Position numbers and translations under genes: made by a program
Part shown: positions 2,725 through 26,801 of the stretch, one piece after another
Numbering within the stretch: the stretch's first letter is position 1
How the letters are laid out: each line of letters begins with the position of its first letter
The notes under the pieces: model-generated
The model's database searches: none
What the model was told of the DNA's origin: nothing
The model's input: only the letters and a program-made list of their open reading frames with translations
Virus genome (UHGV): UHGV-0140727
Direction: 5' to 3' (one strand)
DNA: 30,803 nucleotides
Source of the DNA: a virus

Positions 2725-4077
2725 TTATTCGTAAGCCACTGTACCTTTCAAGTCAACATCCAAGATAGCACCTGCTAAGATACCTGCGAAGGTAACGTCT
2801 TTTAGGATACGTGCTTTCTTGTCTGCTAAAGCAACTTGAGAGGCTTTAGGAACATTAACTGTGTAAGATGACAGGAAGTTTCTGTTGACTGCTCTTTGTA
2901 GAGAGGTTTCAATGACTTGACGAATACGGGTAATACCAGTATCATCATAAGTAATCTTACCACCCTTCTGGTTAATTAGCAAGTCTCTCAGAGAAGTTTT
3001 CAGGTCTGATTCTAACCAGTCAACACCACGGACGATATCAATCCATTCCCCACCAGAAGTAATCCCTCTACGAACCACTGGAACACCACCATCAAGGTCA
3101 ATAAAGTTACAGTGACGTACATCTAAAGCAGACTTCTGAATACTTGTCAGAGGTCTCTGATTAGATGGTTGTAGAGAAGCTGCTACACCAGTTAGCTGAG
3201 CATTACCCCAAGCAATTGAACCTGCATCATATGGAGCACCATAAGCAATGTATGCCATCTCTGGATAGTCTTCTGCTGCTGCGTGATGCCACAAGCAAAC
3301 TGTACGAGTGTACATACTCTTAGCAAGCTGTGCTGGAACATCATTTGCACTGGCTAATTCTGTACCTTGTAGGGCTGTTACATCGGAGTTAGCCGTAAAG
3401 AAGATTTTCTTACGAGCCTGAATCTCAGAAGCCATTGCTAAGACAAACTGTTGCGTTCTGTCTTCTGCTGCAATGAAATACCAGTCAGTAGAGTAAGCTT
3501 CGATAGCTGCCAGAGCAGTTGCTGCTGTATCGGCAGTTGTACTTGCAATATATACAGTCTGTGCTGTAGTTGTTACTTTCACAAAGTCATTATCACCCGC
3601 TTTGGTAATAATCATTGTGGCAGAGCCATTGCTACCAGTTACGTTCACAGAAACCTTATCTTTGATTGTTGGGTCAGCTTCAATCTGTGTTTTAAACTGT
3701 TGCAACACGTTTTCAGCAGTGTCTGAATCTTGTGCTGTGTACTGGTATGGTTGAGAAATTCCACCGCCAGCAGCTACAGTAATTGAGTAGTCTGTACTTT
3801 CGGTAACGGCATCAGGAATTGATACAGTGTACTGCATAGCACGTCTACCAATATAAAGCTGAGTTACTTTAGGAGTCTGACTCCAAAGTTGTTTAGCAGC
3901 CTTATACGCAGCAGAGTTTTCATCGAAATCTTCAGCAACTTCAGTTAAGGAAGTGTAACCACGGACTCTTTCTTCAAAGTTATCTGTTGAAGCTAAGAAT
4001 AGTGGCAAACCAAAACCTTCTCTTGTAGTTCCTGCGGTGTTCAATGTAATATCTACATTAACAATTGGATTCCACAT
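2725..4077 (-). CDS. Tail sheath-like major tail protein
   Basis: 450-aa ORF at the head of the tail gene block, followed by a small tube-size ORF. Size and order fit a contractile-tail sheath. No motif confirmed. Confidence 0.5.
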   Translation of the reverse strand: MWNPIVNVDITLNTAGTTREGFGLPLFLASTDNFEERVRGYTSLTEVAEDFDENSAAYKAAKQLWSQTPKVTQLYIGRRAMQYTVSIPDAVTESTDYSITVAAGGGISQPYQYTAQDSDTAENVLQQFKTQIEADPTIKDKVSVNVTGSNGSATMIITKAGDNDFVKVTTTAQTVYIASTTADTAATALAAIEAYSTDWYFIAAEDRTQQFVLAMASEIQARKKIFFTANSDVTALQGTELASANDVPAQLAKSMYTRTVCLWHHAAAEDYPEMAYIAYGAPYDAGSIAWGNAQLTGVAASLQPSNQRPLTSIQKSALDVRHCNFIDLDGGVPVVRRGITSGGEWIDIVRGVDWLESDLKTSLRDLLINQKGGKITYDDTGITRIRQVIETSLQRAVNRNFLSSYTVNVPKASQVALADKKARILKDVTFAGILAGAILDVDLKGTVAYE

Positions 4078-14610: not shown

Positions 14611-15168
14611 TTACTTTCTCAGTGGATGAATAAAGAATGCCAACATAACTCTTTCCCTTGAGAATGCTCTTTCTTCTGGGACAACACTTTTTAGTTTCCA
14701 TCCAATATAAATTCTCCAGTAAAACTGTTTACCAAAGACTTTAATTGATGGTATAAAAGCGAATAATCCCCAAGCATTACTGTTCCACATTAGGAGATAA
14801 CCAGTCTGATTATCTTCAGGGTCAGAACTTACGTTGATATTACCTTTCCACTTAGTCACATCTTTTACATCTCTTCCTAATACATGGTAAGAGAAGTTAT
14901 AAGCTTTGTTTCTCCAGAGCCATCCAACTCTCTGCATGTAGACACCCAGCTTACCAATCTTTCTAATCTTAGCCCATCTTTTAACGTGGCCTTCATCACC
15001 ATCAATTGGGTTGTCATATGTCTCCATCCATCTGAACCCGAAAGGTAAGTGTCCTTTCTTCTCACTGTAGAATGGAACTACGAAAGGTGCTAAGATAACT
15101 GCTAGTATTGCTGCAAGTGGTTCTAGCAAAGCTAAGAAAATCCATGAAGCATATTTTAAGTATCTCAT
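14611..15168 (-). CDS. Hypothetical membrane protein (N-terminal transmembrane segment) inside the tRNA array
   Basis: 185-aa ORF with a hydrophobic N-terminus (WIFLALLEPLAAILAVILAPFVVPF). Its start overlaps the stop of the upstream 80-aa ORF in ATGA fashion (15165-15168). Confidence 0.5.
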   Translation of the reverse strand: MRYLKYASWIFLALLEPLAAILAVILAPFVVPFYSEKKGHLPFGFRWMETYDNPIDGDEGHVKRWAKIRKIGKLGVYMQRVGWLWRNKAYNFSYHVLGRDVKDVTKWKGNINVSSDPEDNQTGYLLMWNSNAWGLFAFIPSIKVFGKQFYWRIYIGWKLKSVVPEERAFSRERVMLAFFIHPLRK

Positions 15169-16848: not shown

Positions 16849-17196
16849 CTAATACTTTGCATGTCTTACCCTATGGCAATTTGAACATAGCAAAACACAT
16901 TTGTCAAGTTCATCTTTTAGTTCTTGAGAGAACTTCAGACTTTTTCTATGACCAATGTTAAAATCTTTCTCTGAAGGATTCAAATGATGGAAGTCATACA
17001 CTGCTGGATGATACCTTTTACCACAATCATGACAAACCCCACCTTTGTACTCAATAGCTGAAAGTTTAAGTGCTCTTTGTCTTTCTATGGTTTGCTCATT
17101 AACACACTTTTTACAGTATGAATGAGTTCTCTTACCATCTTTCATGTAGAAATCATTTTCATCCTTGCTAAGTTTGCACCTAATACAAGTTTTCAT
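16849..17196 (-). CDS. HNH endonuclease (homing-endonuclease-like) embedded in the tRNA array
   Basis: N-terminal CxxC...CxxC zinc-finger-like cysteines, then the HNH signature (DFHHLNPSEKDFN ... CSNCHRVRH). ORF track start at 17247 overlaps a tRNA; the ATG at 17194-17196 has a GGAG ribosome-binding site 5 nt upstream, giving 115 aa. Confidence 0.75.
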   Translation of the reverse strand: MKTCIRCKLSKDENDFYMKDGKRTHSYCKKCVNEQTIERQRALKLSAIEYKGGVCHDCGKRYHPAVYDFHHLNPSEKDFNIGHRKSLKFSQELKDELDKCVLLCSNCHRVRHAKY

Positions 17197-17210
17197 GATT
17201 TCTCCAAAAT

Positions 17211-17292
17211 TGGTCGAGGCGGCAGGACTCGAACCCGCATACTCCACTTACTCGGTTAACGGCGGTTTAGAAGACCGCTGAGATACGCCCCG
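17211..17292 (-). tRNA. tRNA-like gene, anticodon unresolved (candidate loop CUUCUAA would give Arg UCU)
   Basis: Clean T-arm GCGGG-TTCGAGT-CCTGC, 7-bp acceptor with one G-U pair, CCA encoded. A perfect stem GCGGT/ACCGC carries loop CUUCUAA, but the remaining nucleotides do not give a canonical D-arm and variable arm. 82 nt. Confidence 0.4.
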
Positions 17293-17540
17293 TAATTATC
17301 TTTAAAGACTCTCTTAGAAAGCCCTTAGAGATGCCCACCTTATTAATCATACCGTGGGCTAGTACGCCAAATTCTTTGATGAGGGATTGGAAGACCTCAC
17401 TGGTGTTTAGCCTATCAAGCTACTGCCAGAAAAACATTGTCGTTTGCATTTATTTTAAATTTGCAAAATAGACGCTACGCAACGAAAACTAAGGTTACTA
17501 TAAAGTAGTCACATCTCAATGTCAACAACTTTATTGAAAT

Positions 17541-17615
17541 TGGTTGTAGGTGAGGGTATCGAACCCTCTTCTAACGGTTATCAGCCGTTTGCATTACCAT
17601 TTATGCTAACCCACA
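17541..17615 (-). tRNA. tRNA-Ile (anticodon GAU)
   Basis: Perfect D-stem GCAT/ATGC, perfect anticodon stem AACGG/CCGTT with loop CUGAUAA, T-arm GAGGG-TTCGATA-CCCTC, CCA encoded. Confidence 0.75.
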
Positions 17616-17617
17616 AT

Positions 17618-17694
17618 TGGAGGTTCAGATGGGAATCGAACCCACATTCATAGGGCTTATGAGACCCTTGCATTACCTTATCTGCGACTGAACC
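17618..17694 (-). tRNA. tRNA-Met (anticodon CAU; elongator or Ile2-type not distinguishable)
   Basis: Perfect acceptor (GGTTCAG/CTGAACC), anticodon stem AGGGT/GCCCT with loop CUCAUAA, T-loop TTCGATT, CCA encoded. G1-C72 pair argues against an initiator. Confidence 0.65.
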
Positions 17695-17698
17695 ATTT

Positions 17699-17774
17699 TG
17701 GTAGAAGTGGAGGGATTCGAACCCATCGCCTGTCAGATTAAAAGTCTGCCGCATCACCATTCTGCTACACTTCC
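17699..17774 (-). tRNA. tRNA-Lys (anticodon UUU)
   Basis: T-loop TTCGAAT, anticodon loop CUUUUAA, 7-bp acceptor, CCA encoded. Confidence 0.65.
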
Positions 17775-17916
17775 ATTAAATTATATTTGTAGATAAGCTA
17801 CCCAGACTTGCTTAAGGTCTGTAGCGATGTGTCTTTTCGGGTTAAATCTAGAATCTACCCTTCCACCTTTGTGGTCGCATACTCACAGGTAAGCTTAATA
17901 ACTTATCTACAAAGAT

Positions 17917-18057
17917 AATTACCAGACCGTTGTTTATCATCTTAAGTGCTACCATTACACCAACTCGACATCTGCCGAGTGAAGGAATCGAACCTTCGCC
18001 TTTTCTTTACCGGAGAAATAGATTGTTTAAGTTTTGCTGTAAACGGTCTTCTGTAAA
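17917..18057 (-). ncRNA. Structured RNA element A: conserved bulged closing helix enclosing a permuted tRNA-like module (Y-RNA-like candidate)
   Basis: Sense strand: 5' TTAC-AGA-AGACCGTT (plus 18040-18055) pairs with 3' AACGGTCT-G-GTAA (plus 17920-17932). Between them, in order: T-arm GAAGG-TTCGATT-CCTTC (plus 17971-17987), a 7-bp acceptor-like hairpin closed by a 4-nt loop (plus 17953-17970), and a D-arm-like GTGTAATGGTAGCAC (plus 17936-17952). No anticodon arm. Confidence 0.45.
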
Positions 18058-18063
18058 TTTGTT

Positions 18064-18145
18064 GAGCCAGACCAAGTTTTAAATTTTTCAAAATTAAATT
18101 GGCTTGAAAATATCATACGTACTTGCTGTATTTGGTCTTCTGCTC
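18064..18145 (-). ncRNA. Structured RNA element B (paralog of A, C, D)
   Basis: Same helix architecture with compensatory changes: outer GAGC/GCTC, 5' AGA opposite 3' G, inner AGACCAA/TTGGTCT, conserved TACAGCAA at the start of the enclosed loop. Confidence 0.4.
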
Positions 18146-18203
18146 CTTTAAAGGATACTCGTAAGAACCCTTTAAGGGAGGGGCTAAATAGCCCTCTCAA
18201 AAT

Positions 18204-18281
18204 TGGCGGTTACGAAGGGATTTGAACCCTCATCATCTCCCGTGACAGGGGAGTATTTTAACCAAATTAAACTACATAACC
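18204..18281 (-). tRNA. tRNA-Asp (anticodon GUC)
   Basis: Perfect anticodon stem CTCCC/GGGAG with loop CUGUCAC, T-loop TTCAAAT, acceptor with one G-U pair, CCA encoded. Confidence 0.75.
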
Positions 18282-18286
18282 TTTAT

Positions 18287-18374
18287 TGGTGTGCCGTGTA
18301 GGAGTCGAACCTACCGAGTCTCAATGACAAGGGATTTACAGTCCCCACCGCTACCATCTACGGGATAACGACAC
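18287..18374 (-). tRNA. tRNA-Tyr (anticodon GUA), type II
   Basis: 88 nt. Anticodon stem GGGGA/TCCCT with loop CUGUAAA, long variable arm, perfect T-stem GTAGG/CCTAC, 7-bp acceptor with one G-U pair, CCA encoded. Confidence 0.7.
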
Positions 18375-18383
18375 ATTTAAATT

Positions 18384-18460
18384 TGGCGGTTAGTCAGGGA
18401 TTCGAACCCTGTGCCATTCGCTTAACAGGCGACCGCACATACCTTATGTGCTTCCTAACC
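18384..18460 (-). tRNA. tRNA-Asn (anticodon GUU)
   Basis: Perfect D-stem GCAC/GTGC, anticodon loop CUGUUAA, perfect T-arm CAGGG-TTCGAAT-CCCTG, CCA encoded. Confidence 0.7.
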
Positions 18461-18470
18461 ATGTTTAGTA

Positions 18471-18543
18471 TTACCAGACCGTATCTTTCAATTTTTTCCG
18501 CTAAAAATTTAATAAATATTGCTGTAAACGGTCTTCTGTAAAT
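18471..18543 (-). ncRNA. Structured RNA element C (paralog of A, B, D)
   Basis: 5' strand is identical to element A over 24 nt (TTTACAGAAGACCGTTTACAGCAA). It pairs with 3' ACGGTCT-G-GTAA (plus 18471-18482): outer TTAC/GTAA, inner AGACCGT/ACGGTCT, enclosing about 40 nt. Confidence 0.4.
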
Positions 18544-18544
18544 T

Positions 18545-18621
18545 TGGAGGCGGGTGCAGGAGTCGAACCTGCCGATACCATGCTAATGAGACATGTGAGA
18601 CGCCCTTTCTCTATACCCGCA
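18545..18621 (-). tRNA. tRNA with anticodon CAU (Met, initiator or Ile2-type not resolved)
   Basis: Perfect T-arm GCAGG-TTCGACT-CCTGC, D-stem GAGA/TCTC, anticodon loop CUCAUUA (U at position 37 is unusual), 6-bp acceptor with a 1-72 mismatch, CCA encoded. Confidence 0.55.
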
Positions 18622-18629
18622 ATTCTTAA

Positions 18630-18709
18630 TGACCAGACCAAATCTCTTCTATGTCCGATTTACCTTCAGATGAATAAGATTAAGTTTGCTGTAATTGGTC
18701 TTCTGTCAA
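18630..18709 (-). ncRNA. Structured RNA element D (paralog of A, B, C)
   Basis: Outer helix TGAC/GTCA, 5' AGA opposite 3' G, inner AGACCAA/TTGGTCT, conserved TACAGCAA at loop start, enclosing about 50 nt. Confidence 0.4.
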
Positions 18710-18712
18710 AAC

Positions 18713-18790
18713 TGGCGTTCCAGAAGGGATTTGAACCCTCAAATATCCACTTTGAAAGAGTGGTGACTTTACCATTTTGTCTACTGGAAC
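18713..18790 (-). tRNA. tRNA-Glu (anticodon UUC)
   Basis: Perfect acceptor (GTTCCAG/CTGGAAC), perfect anticodon stem CCACT/AGTGG with loop CUUUCAA, T-loop TTCAAAT, CCA encoded. Confidence 0.75.
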
Positions 18791-18797
18791 ATTAATT

Positions 18798-18874
18798 TGG
18801 TCTCTGTTGGAGGACTTGAACCTCCGGCCTTACCGCCCCAAACGGAACGCTCTACCAAGCTGAGCTAAACAGAG
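18798..18874 (-). tRNA. tRNA-Pro (anticodon UGG)
   Basis: Perfect acceptor (CTCTGTT/AACAGAG), perfect D-stem GCTC/GAGC, perfect T-arm GGAGG-TTCAAGT-CCTCC, anticodon loop UUUGGGG with G37, CCA encoded. Confidence 0.7.
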
Positions 18875-19039
18875 ATAAACTTTTCAAACTCTATGTAACC
18901 ACTTTAACATTATTTTTTAGTGATTGTCAAGAACTTTTTTAAAATATTTTTCAGTATCTTAGAAAAGCTCTCATTTCGTTTCTATGTAGAACATATTAAA
19001 GGGTATTAAACACATTGTCAATACCCTTTTTAAAACTTT

Positions 19040-20455
19040 TTACCAGATATAACGGTCAATCATTACTGCTTTGAGCATTACGCTGATTGGGTCAAACTTC
19101 TCACCACCAAGCAGAGCTTTTAAAGTGGCTGGAGAGAAACCAGATACCATTGCTACACCGTTATCCTTAACAGATACTTCGCAAGTACCGTTACGGTTTG
19201 CTAAGTACCAGAATACCAGTTGTGGCATTTCGTATCCAGCTTTTTTGTACTTACTCTGGATTGCTTCAAAGTTTGTACGACCGTTAGCTCCATCAACCTG
19301 ATTGAACTCCATATCGGAGAAGATGATAAGCTTACTTGGCATATCTTTCTGAGTCAAGTTGTTTCTTTTACCTGTCTCAAGAATACGGTCAAAAGCTGCT
19401 TGTAAGTTAGTTGAGCCATATTCAACGTGTCGCATCACCTGACGATGACGGTTTCGTAAATCACCACTCAGTTCGATGAAGTGAGGGTTTGTTGAATAAA
19501 CCATTAACTCATTCTTAAAGCAACCTGTATTGCGTTCTGCTACATACAAGGCAAGTGATACACCAATATCCAGAGCAGTAATGGAGCCAAAATTCACCCA
19601 AGACATTGAACTTGATACATCAGACATACACAAGATGTTTTCACCTTCTGCCATCCAGTTTGGTAGTGCTTTCCACTGCTCATTAGCAACATCTGCATTA
19701 CCATACTTGACAGATTTAATCACATCGTATGGGTAAACAGCACCAGCGTTAATCTTAGTCTCACCTTTTGATAAGGACTCGATGTAAGCTTTGTAACGCT
19801 CTCCATCTTTACGGTTAAACAGTTTTTGGTAACGTGCAGCAGCAAGTGAAGGAATCTTACTGTAGTCAATCTTACCAAACTCATTAGCAGAGATTTTTTG
19901 CTCAACTGTATCAGATAGTGCAGACAACAGTGTGCGGTACTCTTTCTCACTCAAGTTGGCAAACTTGCAGAAACGTTTTACAAACTGCTTATGACGTGGT
20001 TTGACTCGTGGTAACCACTTAGCCGCCAAACCTGCTGTTGCAGGGTCTAGTAATGCTGCTTCTAAATGTTTGAAGGCATCTGTCTCGAAACGAGTACCTA
20101 CGAAGATTTTGAAGTCATCAAAACGACCAAGTTCTGCAATCTTATCCATAATGCGAAGAACCTGCGTAGACTCTAAAACTTTGTCTTCAATTGCTTGAAG
20201 CAAAACAGTTCTGAAGGCTTTACGCTCACCCATACCTTCTCGTACATCTCGCATATGAAGCAAAATACGAACTGCAACATCAACATCCTCACGCAAAGCT
20301 TTGTAGAACAGGTCTGGTAAGATTTCTACGTTGCTACGGCTTGAACCAGCAGCTTTGTAAAAGTCTACAAGAGCAGACATTGATGAAGTATGGTTTACAG
20401 CACCATTTTCAGTTCGACCTGCATGAAGGTACGCATGTTTAAATAATTCGCTCAT
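19040..20455 (-). CDS. vWA-domain protein with a helical N-terminal domain; Ro60/Rsr-like (TROVE + vWA) architecture, DUF2828-like
   Basis: 471-aa ORF. The C-terminal half has the vWA MIDAS signature in order: DxSxS (LCMSDVSSSMS), a downstream GSTN threonine, and LIIFSDME. The N-terminal ~250 aa is predicted helical. The TROVE assignment is inference from architecture and context, not from a search. Confidence 0.55.
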   Translation of the reverse strand: MSELFKHAYLHAGRTENGAVNHTSSMSALVDFYKAAGSSRSNVEILPDLFYKALREDVDVAVRILLHMRDVREGMGERKAFRTVLLQAIEDKVLESTQVLRIMDKIAELGRFDDFKIFVGTRFETDAFKHLEAALLDPATAGLAAKWLPRVKPRHKQFVKRFCKFANLSEKEYRTLLSALSDTVEQKISANEFGKIDYSKIPSLAAARYQKLFNRKDGERYKAYIESLSKGETKINAGAVYPYDVIKSVKYGNADVANEQWKALPNWMAEGENILCMSDVSSSMSWVNFGSITALDIGVSLALYVAERNTGCFKNELMVYSTNPHFIELSGDLRNRHRQVMRHVEYGSTNLQAAFDRILETGKRNNLTQKDMPSKLIIFSDMEFNQVDGANGRTNFEAIQSKYKKAGYEMPQLVFWYLANRNGTCEVSVKDNGVAMVSGFSPATLKALLGGEKFDPISVMLKAVMIDRYIW

Positions 20456-20487
20456 ATTTTACTCTCTTCTCTCATTTGTTGTTTGAT

Positions 20488-20523
20488 GTGACAGACTTTA
20501 GAGCAACTTTGTATAGTCTGTCA
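20488..20523. promoter_or_regulatory. Perfect 9-bp inverted repeat between two minus-strand genes
   Basis: tgacagact (20489-20497) and agtctgtca (20514-20522) separated by a 16-nt loop, lying between the stop of the 123-aa ORF and the start of the vWA-protein ORF. No flanking U-run, so it is not a classical terminator. Confidence 0.4.
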
Positions 20524-20536
20524 ACACCTTTTAAAA

Positions 20537-20908
20537 TTATTTTTTGAGAGTTGCTACAGCAGAGAACGTTGGTTTGTTATCTGTCTGTTGTTGACCACCA
20601 TTATCAGGAGTCTTCTTAGTGTCTGCTGCAAGTGCTTTCATCTCACCTGCTGAGTGAGTAAAGATAGTTTTACCTACCTCAATCATGCTCTTGATGGTTA
20701 CGTCGTCTGTGTTTAACCCGAACTCTGCAAGCTTAGCAGCGTCCCTTGTAACAATCGCCTCAAACAACTTTGCAGCAAACTCAGCAGAATTATCAATGGT
20801 CAGTTGAGCTTTTACAAGTGAGCTTTTGTTACGAGAGCCTTTTGGTCTTCCAGATGGGTTTCCAGATTGGCCTTTTTTAAACTGGCCTTTGTTTGTTCTG
20901 TTTTTCAT
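20537..20908 (-). CDS. Hypothetical basic protein with N-terminal GNPSGRPKG motif (DUF5681-like; possible DNA-binding or small-terminase-like)
   Basis: 123-aa ORF with a Lys/Arg/Gly-rich N-terminus (KGQFKKGQSGNPSGRPKGSRNK). First gene of the minus-strand unit, next to the divergent intergenic region. Confidence 0.5.
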   Translation of the reverse strand: MKNRTNKGQFKKGQSGNPSGRPKGSRNKSSLVKAQLTIDNSAEFAAKLFEAIVTRDAAKLAEFGLNTDDVTIKSMIEVGKTIFTHSAGEMKALAADTKKTPDNGGQQQTDNKPTFSAVATLKK

Positions 20909-24972: not shown

Positions 24973-25265
24973 TGAGTAAAGTACAGGTTGTTTTCCCTAT
25001 TTGTGACTTCTCACTAGAGCGTGAACTTGACCTGTACGAAGAAATTACTGACGAAATTATCTGGTCTGTTGTAGAAGAGGCTATCAAGAAGCTGTATGGT
25101 GGCCTCTTAAACCCATCAAGTAAGAAGTTAAGCACTAAGCAAGTAGCTGACCCATATGTTTCATACGATGCCTACAACAAGCCTTTTGAGAATACCTGCT
25201 TTGACCTTATGGTAGGTAATAACAAAGTCAACTATTTCTTCGTCAGAGAGTTTAACGATGAGTAA
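24972..25265 (+). CDS. Hypothetical protein
   Basis: 97-aa ORF with start/stop overlap. Confidence 0.45.
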   Translation: MSKVQVVFPICDFSLERELDLYEEITDEIIWSVVEEAIKKLYGGLLNPSSKKLSTKQVADPYVSYDAYNKPFENTCFDLMVGNNKVNYFFVREFNDE

Positions 25266-25602
25266 GCTCCATGTCACAGTGTACAAAAACTTCTCAGATA
25301 TAAAAGAGTCTTTAACAAATAAGCTTGACTTACAACGTAAAAGACTCTTTTTAATGTACGACATAGACAACTACGACCATCCTAAAGAGTTTAACTATAA
25401 AGATGGTACAAAGGTCGTTGAATTTGAAGATTCTGTAACGGTATATGTAAAATATGACTTACCAGCAAAGTACATAGGGATGTTAGAGTACTACATATTC
25501 AAACATACAGGTATGCGTGGTGAAGCTGTTAAGATATCTTCTATAGAAGTTTTTGAGAAACCTAACACACAACTTAAAAAGTATTTAATGAGGAAACTGT
25601 AA
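25258..25602 (+). CDS. Hypothetical protein
   Basis: 114-aa ORF with overlapping junctions on both sides. Confidence 0.45.
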   Translation: MSKLHVTVYKNFSDIKESLTNKLDLQRKRLFLMYDIDNYDHPKEFNYKDGTKVVEFEDSVTVYVKYDLPAKYIGMLEYYIFKHTGMRGEAVKISSIEVFEKPNTQLKKYLMRKL

Positions 25603-26183
25603 TGTCCGAAGAGCAACAGAATATCACTCCACAAGTAACACTGGTACAACATTTTGGAAATATTGAAGGTTGTATTGCACTTTTTCAACCAAGTATCAAC
25701 TCTCCTGCAAAAGTTTGCAAGTTGACTATGAATGTTAACAACATCAGTGTTTGCCTTGTTGAAGAAGTTCAATATTTCAAGTTCAATGACAGAGAGGTTG
25801 ATGCTGCACTATTGAAGTATCGAGCAAACCTCGAAAAAGATATTGACCACAAAGAACTTGTAACATTGTTTGGCGACCTTCACAAGCTTCTTGAAAAGGT
25901 TATGAAGCGTACATACTACATGAACAATGGTTCAATCATCACCACTTTGATTTCACCATGTATTTCAGAGCCAATTTTAACTGATGACGGTGGATACTAC
26001 GTGGTAGCATCAGCAGACTCTGATTGGTGGATGAAGAACACAGCACTTAAGACAGTGATTGAGGCTATCCGCGAACATATCCCTTCATTCAGCCCGTGGA
26101 AAGGTAAAAGTGATGATTTCATTGCATTGTTGAGTGAAGAGAGTAACAAGCGCAGTGCATTACTGCCTAAAAAATACTCTTGA
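25602..26183 (+). CDS. Hypothetical protein
   Basis: 193-aa ORF, start overlapping the upstream stop. Confidence 0.5.
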   Translation: MSEEQQNITPQVTLVQHFGNIEGCIALFQPSINSPAKVCKLTMNVNNISVCLVEEVQYFKFNDREVDAALLKYRANLEKDIDHKELVTLFGDLHKLLEKVMKRTYYMNNGSIITTLISPCISEPILTDDGGYYVVASADSDWWMKNTALKTVIEAIREHIPSFSPWKGKSDDFIALLSEESNKRSALLPKKYS

Positions 26184-26255
26184 CCGAGTATACAATATTG
26201 ACTATGATGGGAGCTATCGAGAGGTAGTTCCCTTTTTAGTTTCTGGAGAGTAGAT

Positions 26256-26801
26256 ATGGCTAAAGTGAAAGAACACGATAAAATTATTTTGTATGTTAAA
26301 CAGAATCCTTCAAAGAGTGTTGAGGCTGTTGTAACACACATCTCACACAATGGTACAGTTTATTTCCGACCACTGAAGAATTTAGACTTTGACACAACAC
26401 CAAACCACACATTCAGTACTTCTGCAAGACTGTGTGCAGGTACTGTATACTCAACTGCTGAGATTGAGTCCTTATCTTTCACGGGTGCTTACAAAAACTT
26501 TATAGGGATTGCTCTAAAGGACTCTGAAGAATCTTTTAAATTTTTCATGGAGACTAATAAAGGTTGCTACACACATGTTATGCCAGTCTATAAGAAAGTT
26601 GACACAGAGCTTACCAGTAAGTGCGAAGAAATTAGTAGTGACCTGAAGGAGCGTAAAACAGCTATTCAGAATGCCATTTACATCATTGAGAGGAACCATT
26701 TAGAAGTTCTTTTCAGAGATATGCTAAAAGCAGGGTTTACTCCAAACGAAATTACAAGAGAAACACAACGACAGTTCAGAAACGCTATGGTGAAAGAATG
26801 A
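26256..26801 (+). CDS. Hypothetical protein
   Basis: 181-aa ORF with GGAGAG upstream of the ATG. Confidence 0.5.
   Translation: MAKVKEHDKIILYVKQNPSKSVEAVVTHISHNGTVYFRPLKNLDFDTTPNHTFSTSARLCAGTVYSTAEIESLSFTGAYKNFIGIALKDSEESFKFFMETNKGCYTHVMPVYKKVDTELTSKCEEISSDLKERKTAIQNAIYIIERNHLEVLFRDMLKAGFTPNEITRETQRQFRNAMVKE

Follow-up and report, generated by a model that had tools for sequence, protein, structure and literature searches.

We examined a 30,803-nucleotide (nt) stretch of viral DNA, UHGV-0140727 (the window), in which a gene for a 471-residue protein is followed on the minus strand by an array of transfer RNA (tRNA) genes. The locus is probably a phage Ro60-type ribonucleoprotein module, in which four small RNA elements, E1 to E4, would be the cognate Y-like RNAs. 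The modelled protein has the fold of Ro60. The elements belong to an RNA family that has a common structure and is tightly linked to the gene. They are very likely the RNA partners of the protein because this widespread family occurs beside homologues of it. Binding, processing and function are what we infer. Judged from sequence, the locus would represent a Ro60 clade that has diverged and possesses a separate Y-like RNA family, four members of which lie in the window. The principal features are as follows.

19040 to 20455, minus strand: Ro60-like gene, 471 amino acids; N-terminal helical-repeat (TROVE-like) domain, Pfam DUF2828, and C-terminal von Willebrand factor A (vWA) domain with a complete MIDAS (metal ion-dependent adhesion site), Pfam DUF7788
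18686 to 18704, 18519 to 18537, 18123 to 18141 and 18034 to 18052, minus strand: copies of the 19-nt core AGAAGACCNNNTACAGCAA, located by pattern scan
18631 to 18705, minus strand: E1, short Y-like RNA; closing stem, UUACAGCAA, internal 5-bp hairpin with loop AGGUAAA, closing stem
18472 to 18538, minus strand: E2, short Y-like RNA, identified by pattern and fold
18065 to 18142, minus strand: E3, short Y-like RNA 3' of tRNA-Asp, identified by pattern and fold
17919 to 18056, minus strand: E4, long Y-like RNA; outer stem 18053-18056/17919-17922, main stem 18042-18049/17924-17931, CAGCAA at 18034-18039
17946 to 17997, minus strand: permuted tRNA-like domain of E4; T arm 17981-17997, closed 7-bp acceptor hairpin 17963-17980, U8-G9, D arm 17946-17960
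18002 to 18018, minus strand: V/anticodon-like hairpin of E4 (5 bp, 7-nt loop), upstream of the T arm

Positions 17500-20600 match many genomes of Felixounavirus, the Felix O1-type myoviruses that infect Escherichia and Salmonella, with 97-98% identity. In those records the open reading frame (ORF) is labelled 'vWFA protein', 'RNA-binding protein' or 'hypothetical protein', and the inter-tRNA stretches are unannotated. A preliminary description, made from the DNA letters alone, had assigned to this ORF the Ro60/Rsr layout of a helical N-terminal domain followed by a vWA MIDAS. The ORF and the quoted motifs are present, and the layout was borne out. Pfam returned DUF7788 (E 1.7e-43, 148.9 bits, cut-off 27.1) and DUF2828 (E 3.9e-29, 102.2 bits, cut-off 29). 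The PHROGs match was phrog_850, 'RNA-binding protein' (3e-183). No significant match to PDB sequences was obtained with phmmer. In a profile search of the same sequences, DVSSSM of the protein aligned with DVSASM of Ro60. The MIDAS is complete: D279, S281 and S283 (DVSSS), T349 (GSTN), and S380 and D381 (FSD) are invariant in an alignment of 43 homologues with 40-89% identity. The AlphaFold model is confident (predicted local distance difference test 87, predicted template modelling score 0.87). When this model was compared with the PDB using Foldseek, the six best matches were all Ro60/Rsr, and each alignment covered the entire chain (E 5e-7 to 3e-6, template modelling score 0.51-0.66). Isolated vWA domains ranked after these, with E above 2e-3. 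Hence, the whole chain reproduces the expected fold, a helical-repeat ring and then a vWA domain. Given the Foldseek matches and the invariant MIDAS, the protein has the architecture of Ro60 without matching the sequence model of that family. Our best explanation is that it is a divergent Ro60/Rsr homologue, as modelled, of a DUF2828+DUF7788 clade. Full-length homologues were found by tblastn in 710 phage records, including phages of Vibrio, Aeromonas, Campylobacter, Listeria, Staphylococcus, Enterococcus and Bacillus, and cluster L mycobacteriophages. The mycobacteriophage homologues carry the curators' label 'Ro-like RNA binding protein'.

The preliminary description also reported four paralogous structured RNA elements inside the tRNA array, on the same strand as the ORF, and these were recovered. 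In the window there are exactly four copies of the core AGAAGACCNNNTACAGCAA, always on the minus strand and always within 17917-18712. Four matches were reached in 0 of 100 shuffles. All four elements share a fold: the outer stem has 4 bp, an AGA/G internal loop comes next, and the stem that follows, AGACCNN/NNGGUCU, has 7-8 bp. Compensatory changes distinguish the copies at the stem Ns and in the outer stem (UGAC/GUCA, UUAC/GUAA, GAGC/GCUC). E1 completely fills the tRNA-Glu/tRNA-Met spacer (18622-18712) and E2 the tRNA-Met/tRNA-Asn spacer (18461-18544). E3 and E4 share a 429-nt gap after tRNA-Asp. E1, E2 and E3 have no tRNA arms. For E4, the T arm, closed acceptor hairpin and D arm described previously are present. 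Conversely, the claim that there is no anticodon arm did not stand; the hairpin at 18002-18018, which the Rfam tRNA model aligns as an anticodon arm, occupies the anticodon/variable arm position. E4 is therefore close to a complete permuted tRNA. ARAGORN called no tRNA in 17775-18203. The Rfam tRNA model matched E4 in part, with 22 bits against a gathering score of 29 and over model positions 7-64 only, so E4 does not qualify as a canonical tRNA. For the window as a whole, Rfam returned tRNAs and nothing else for the elements, both at gathering scores and at E<=10. Intrinsic terminators were ruled out, since the 7-8 bp stems are AU-rich, the loops span 25-110 nt and there is no U tract.

Two further structured stretches adjoin the elements. 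Between E4 and tRNA-Lys lies a 142-nt element (17775-17916, minus strand) whose long fold is very stable, with a minimum free energy of -39.2 kcal/mol (z -4.1; 0 of 200 shuffles as stable). It has no Rfam match and is matched by neither covariance model described below. It holds a small hairpin, CAGACC-UUAAGCAA-GUCUGG, reminiscent of the frame of E1 to E4, and may be a further non-coding RNA. Between tRNA-Asp and E3, 18144-18203 (minus strand) forms two neighbouring hairpins (z -2.9). The first is GC-rich and has no U tract; hence, it is not a classical terminator.

An exact AGACC...GGTCT scan of distant homologous loci found nothing. What the family has in common is structure and the CAGCAA motif, not the stem sequence. 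We scanned 77 distant loci for CAGCAA with a strand of at least 7 nt placed 2-3 nt upstream and the complement of that strand 12-200 nt downstream. Such framed sites accounted for 93 of 313 CAGCAA occurrences on the gene strand, compared with 18 of 226 on the opposite strand and 29 of 220 in reversed sequence. Framed elements cluster at the gene. Their density was 1.1 per kb within 100 nt of it and 0.98 per kb at 100-300 nt, but fell to 0.035 per kb both in the gene itself and at distances above 3 kb. In these loci, the opposite strand had no framed element within 300 nt of the gene. Positions that the scan did not demand are also conserved: G at -9 (81%), U at -2 (80%) and the 3' G. The consensus frame is W-G-R-N5-U-W-CAGCAA ... 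N5-Y-C-W-G, and the conserved motif overall is U-W-C-(A/C)-G-C-A-A. For 36 short forms the covariation score was 0.93, against 0.24 with shuffled and 0.11-0.18 with slid partners. Many short forms carry hairpins of 5 bp with a 7-nt loop that resemble anticodon arms. Elements occur as tandem sets of 2-7 in which the cargo differs and can include a permuted tRNA. There are three upstream of the homologue in Listeria phages, with their own TTGACA-17-TATCAT promoter, three downstream of it in Staphylococcus phage 6ec and two upstream in Campylobacter phage F374. No Rfam family covers the framed elements.

At one locus (L049, 3734-3833) a normal tRNA-Thr, called by ARAGORN at 3753-3824, is enclosed by the stem and a UUCAGCAA frame. 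Hence, even a genuine tRNA can serve as cargo of the frame.

The long form was sought separately, as a T arm, a 7-bp hairpin, 2 nt and a D arm; the frame was not used as a criterion. This gave 27 matches on the gene strand and 3 weak ones on the opposite strand. All 14 distinct good matches were enclosed by the stem and a U-W-C(A/C)GCA(A) frame. The layout of E4 recurs in 13 other loci, with covariation. Because plain MAFFT misaligned the acceptor and D arms, we used module-parsed, N-padded alignments, which MAFFT left unchanged. In the long-form alignment, changes on both sides were seen in 22 of 25 pairs and 99% of cells pair, a percentage that is partly circular because members of this and the short-form alignment were chosen for pairing. 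Covariation, strand bias and the leave-out tests below are unaffected by that choice. The long-form covariation score was 1.12, against 0.26 with shuffled and 0.13-0.16 with slid partners. E4 follows the architecture of YrlA, a bacterial Y RNA: a closing stem surrounds, from 5' to 3', a V stem-loop, then a T arm, a closed acceptor-like stem-loop and finally a D arm. E1 to E4 share the strand of the Ro60-like gene and lie 0.3-1.1 kb downstream of it, within the 4-kb distance set for a YrlA-like placement; such placement is general in the family. Together with the gene-linked, same-strand RNA family, the long-form layout supports the YrlA-like arrangement first suggested for this locus.

Leave-out covariance models were then applied. 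R1 was built from 13 long forms, none of Felix type, and R2 from 36 non-Felix short forms. In the window, the best R1 match was E4 (58.2 bits, E 5e-9, full model); the runner-up was a 24-bit tRNA junction. R2 found only E2 (34.2 bits, E 1.5e-6), E1 (32.0 bits, E 6e-6, full length) and E3 (30.6 bits, E 1.4e-5), with nothing further below E 0.7. In a complete 88-kb Felixounavirus genome, R2 gave exactly three matches and R1 exactly one, all just after the gene. All 21 R1 matches in the 77 distant viral loci were on the gene strand. As an independent set we took 80 loci from bacterial genome assemblies, with 33-42% protein identity. At E<=0.01, 61 of 61 R2 matches and 6 of 6 R1 matches lay on the gene strand. 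They were spread over 48 loci, and most were located no more than 400 nt upstream of the start codon. Control phages were taken to be without a Ro60-like gene from tblastn organism counts. The tRNA array of a T5-like phage (26 tRNAs) and that of FV3 (rV5-like) gave no R2 match at E<=1, and R1 made weak tRNA-junction matches only. On these controls, generic tRNA-array spacers were rejected as the source of the signal.

How might such a module work? The locus contains 25 tRNA genes 3' of the ORF, all on the minus strand (ARAGORN, Rfam). The first, tRNA-Pro, begins 165 nt past the stop codon. Features between the gene and E4 are listed below; both promoters are consensus matches only, and promoter-like sites are no more numerous in this region than in shuffles.

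18993 to 19021, minus strand: sigma-70-like promoter, TTGACA-17-TAATAT (consensus scan, 10 of 12 matches), between the gene and the tRNA/RNA array
18901 to 18930, minus strand: second sigma-70-like promoter, TTGACA-18-TAAAGT, with TG (consensus scan), just 5' of tRNA-Pro
18204 to 18874, minus strand: six tRNA genes, Pro, Glu, Met, Asn, Tyr and Asp (ARAGORN, Rfam), with E1 and E2 interleaved and E3 and E4 after them

Promoters located just after the gene would drive co-transcription of E1 to E4 with the tRNA array. Since mature tRNA ends directly adjoin the elements, excision of the flanking tRNAs by RNase P and the enzymes that process tRNA 3' ends could free RNAs of ~70-140 nt. Each RNA would combine a constant module with variable cargo. 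The constant module comprises a 7-8 bp closing stem with conserved W-W, G-C and R-Y pairs, single-stranded U-W-CAGCAA located 3' of the stem's 5' strand, and an unpaired G after the 3' strand. It is the putative protein-binding site, by analogy with the bulged stem and GGUCCGA of animal Y RNAs and with GNCGAA of YrlA. The cargo is a small hairpin in E1 to E3 and a circularly permuted tRNA in E4; elsewhere it is, once, the real tRNA-Thr of L049. As in YrlA, it may recruit tRNA-binding enzymes or gate the ring. The likely job of the module as a whole would be to protect or handle nucleic-acid 3' ends and small RNAs in the face of host exonucleases while infection proceeds. This reading is suggested because gp130 of Bas63, a Felixounavirus, counters the Ppl defence (10.1101/2024.10.10.617714) and the Ro60 of Thermus phage phiLo, with its Y-like RNAs, damps PNPase (PMC12135203). 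Ppl is a single-stranded DNA 3'-5' exonuclease (PMC12904381). The most economical picture would be a ring that captures 3' ends and is gated or targeted by its RNAs.

Several observations weigh against a Ro60-Y RNA module. Of the profile checks proposed for the 471-residue protein, DUF2828 succeeded and TROVE (PF05731) did not; hmmscan returned DUF7788 and DUF2828 alone at E<=1. The profile search of PDB sequences reached Ro60 at E about 1 only, and in the vWA part. The proposed comparison of the elements with Y RNA and YrlA models was also negative in the window: neither Rfam YrlA (RF02553) nor Y_RNA (RF00019) matched E4 or the window at E<=10, even with 166 nt searched, and the YrlA gathering score of 69 bits was not reached. 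The GNCGAA(N0-1)G motif that YrlA has close to its 5' end, its proposed Rsr contact, is not the conserved one here; the conserved motif differs. E4 has GGCGAAG at the V/T junction, read by eye, and other long forms do not conserve it. About 40% of homologous loci have no framed element in the flanks examined. The percentage of paired positions is partly circular, as noted. Finally, gp130 alone, expressed from a plasmid or by T7 that has none of these RNAs, suffices against Ppl (10.1101/2024.10.10.617714). Hence, at least the anti-Ppl activity is independent of phage RNAs.

The elements could instead be cis-acting parts of the operon, either an autoregulatory leader or trailer for the protein's mRNA or spacers that guide or insulate processing of the tRNA transcript. 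We consider this unlikely. The placement of most genome-assembly matches, within about 400 nt upstream of the start codon, would suit a leader. However, Felix-type phages, LeBron and Staphylococcus phage 6ec have their elements downstream of the gene, and two promoter-like sites and tRNAs intervene between gene and elements in the window. The Listeria phage elements have a promoter of their own. A role as spacers would fit the window, where elements sit between tRNAs, and the half of 50 distant viral loci in which same-strand tRNA genes lie within 4 kb of the gene. Yet the T5-like and rV5-like arrays do without elements, and many element-bearing loci have no tRNA within 4 kb (L008, L012, L016, L018, L023, L024, L026, L071 and LeBron). 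Nor would cis-acting parts be expected as tandem sets of 2-7 with differing cargo, including a permuted tRNA.

It is also improbable that protein and RNAs act independently, the former as a protein- or DNA-end-directed inhibitor of Ppl-type exonucleases and the latter as decoys or sponges travelling along, for example anticodon-arm or tRNA mimics directed at host tRNA nucleases or other RNases. Same-strand adjacency is strict across phages of Gram-positive and Gram-negative hosts and metagenome-assembled genomes, at only 29-47% protein identity, which is hard to explain without a direct functional link. Furthermore, the stem and CAGCAA are invariant while cargo varies, as expected for a shared protein-binding site. 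These points are set against the rescue of T7 on Ppl hosts by gp130 alone (10.1101/2024.10.10.617714), the action of Ppl as a single-stranded DNA exonuclease (PMC12904381), the anticodon-arm-like hairpins of short forms and the real tRNA-Thr inside the L049 frame.

That the elements are functionless, decayed or rearranged tRNA genes plus repeated spacer DNA is highly improbable: E4 has tRNA arms and a partial 22-bit Rfam tRNA match, and the array holds homing-endonuclease-type ORFs able to scramble genes, but at least 14 unrelated loci have an identical permutation (7-bp closed acceptor, U8, 4-bp D stem, outer frame) whose changes are fully compensatory, E1 to E3 have no tRNA arms, and covariation, leave-out models and strand-specific gene linkage largely refute tRNA pseudogenes.

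We return to a Ro60-type module with cognate RNAs. Animals, some bacteria and a few phages are known to have Ro60-Y RNA particles, and partners have so far been recognised only where the protein is recognisably TROVE. The larger divergent clade, labelled DUF2828, 'vWFA protein' or 'RNA-binding protein', has candidate cognate RNAs of its own, with a different motif. The Ro60 likeness of this protein family is already noted in phage annotation and in two papers (10.1101/2024.10.10.617714; PMC12282133). The framed RNAs are apparently undescribed; none was found in the literature examined or in Rfam 15, a comparison that did not extend to the list of 22 phages in Chen et al. 2014. They account for gaps left without annotation between the tRNA genes of Felix O1-type therapeutic phages, of which hundreds have been sequenced. 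More tentatively, DUF2828/DUF7788 proteins and 'stem + U-W-CAGCAA' RNAs could form a large unrecognised Ro60-Y RNA branch, spread over Gram-negative, Gram-positive and actinobacterial phages and many prophage-like loci. Its modular RNAs would have interchangeable cargo (bare hairpin, permuted tRNA or real tRNA), and its particle might serve counter-defence, protecting 3' ends or small RNAs from Ppl/PNPase-type exonucleases.

Other genes of the locus were also inspected. Immediately 5' of the Ro60-like gene is a gene for a basic DUF5681 protein (20537-20908, minus strand). A DUF7338 membrane-like protein is encoded inside the tRNA array (14611-15168, minus strand). No tie of either to the module was established. 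A weak Rfam tRNA match at 17214-17292 (minus strand, 31.7 bits) was not called by ARAGORN. It overlaps the start of a 132-residue Cys-rich ORF (16849-17247, minus strand), which is HNH homing endonuclease-like and has no Pfam match. This tRNA gene may have been disrupted or invaded by a homing endonuclease. The overlap is relevant because Ppl, whose triggers are nucleotide depletion and 3'-OH ends made by phage homing endonucleases, is said to sense such ends.

The closest known system is bacterial Rsr with YrlA/YrlB, as in Salmonella and Mycobacterium (PMC4201824; RF02553). Both systems have a ring-plus-vWA protein, and RNAs encoded a few hundred nt away on the same strand, often in several copies. 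In both, the closing stem of one RNA encloses a V arm, a T arm, a closed acceptor and a D arm, equivalent to a tRNA opened at the anticodon side. Ties to tRNA or RNA-repair genes are also shared, here through an RtcB-like ligase at a Listeria phage locus. Conversely, the TROVE hidden Markov model misses the protein described here and RF02553 misses the RNA in the window. The motif is U-W-CAGCAA rather than GNCGAA(N)G, and most copies are short, with no tRNA-like domain.

The Listeria phage in question is LP-083-2. Its RtcB-like tRNA ligase (L084, 6815-8026) is encoded on the strand of the Ro60-like gene, 1.3 kb downstream. Between the two is a phosphohydrolase gene, and a 'tRNA amidotransferase' is encoded further downstream. 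This gene order is reminiscent of the bacterial rsr-yrlA-rtcBA repair operon.

Cluster L mycobacteriophages link the two systems. LeBron gp53 and BigCheese gp55 are true homologues (31-34% identity, full length), and each gene is followed by three framed elements: short, long with a permuted tRNA, and short. In the LeBron spacer each of the three tandem elements has a stem and then ...CAGCAAU; the same hexamer lies 3' of the stem in the four Felix elements. The long element is a sub-threshold but specific Rfam YrlA match, at 39.8 bits, directly downstream of LeBron gp53. A second such match, at 39.2 bits, is directly upstream of the gene at locus L017 (E 3e-5 and 4e-5, respectively). Unlike those in the window, the cluster L elements lie outside any tRNA array and their stems are GC-rich.

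Pairs of Ro60 and Y RNA in phages have been on record since 2014 (Chen et al. 2014, PMC4201824). The Ro60 of phiLo binds its Y-like RNAs, Yrl1 and Yrl2, as well as PNPase (PMC12135203; PDB 9l5y). It differs in being a canonical TROVE protein, its RNAs carry a CGAA motif and there is no tRNA array. Listeria phage CKA15_055 is Rsr-like by HHpred, and its authors proposed Rsr plus Y RNAs (PMC12282133). This homologue, with about 29% identity as for Listeria phages, is encoded downstream of tRNAs; three framed elements and their promoter precede its gene by 70-340 nt, within 25,216-25,610 of OR088597. Purified virions contained CKA15_055 (20 peptides, 57% coverage; PMC12282133), which suggests that virions may package the Ro60-like protein and deliver it along with the genome. 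Of three highly transcribed regions in that phage, the top non-coding one (26,236-26,727, first annotated CKA15_059-061) was discussed as a possible small RNA or Y RNA (PMC12282133). We found that it is a ROOL RNA (Rfam RF03087, 90.1 bits, E 7e-18; L088 1465-2016; OR088597 about 26,195-26,746).

Closest to the window is Bas63 (Felixounavirus JohannRWettstein). Its gp130 has a Ro60-like structure, is encoded directly upstream of tRNAs and counters Ppl also when expressed alone in T7 (PhageMaP preprint, 10.1101/2024.10.10.617714). From that description, gp130 would be the orthologue of the 471-residue protein. The preprint authors went no further than to guess that Y RNAs might be hidden among the annotated tRNA genes (10.1101/2024.10.10.617714). 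In contrast, the elements described here occupy unannotated inter-tRNA spacers, not tRNA genes. For gp130, the sole member of the clade with a phenotype, our analysis defines four candidate RNAs of 70-140 nt, a mutable 8-nt motif and two working covariance models.

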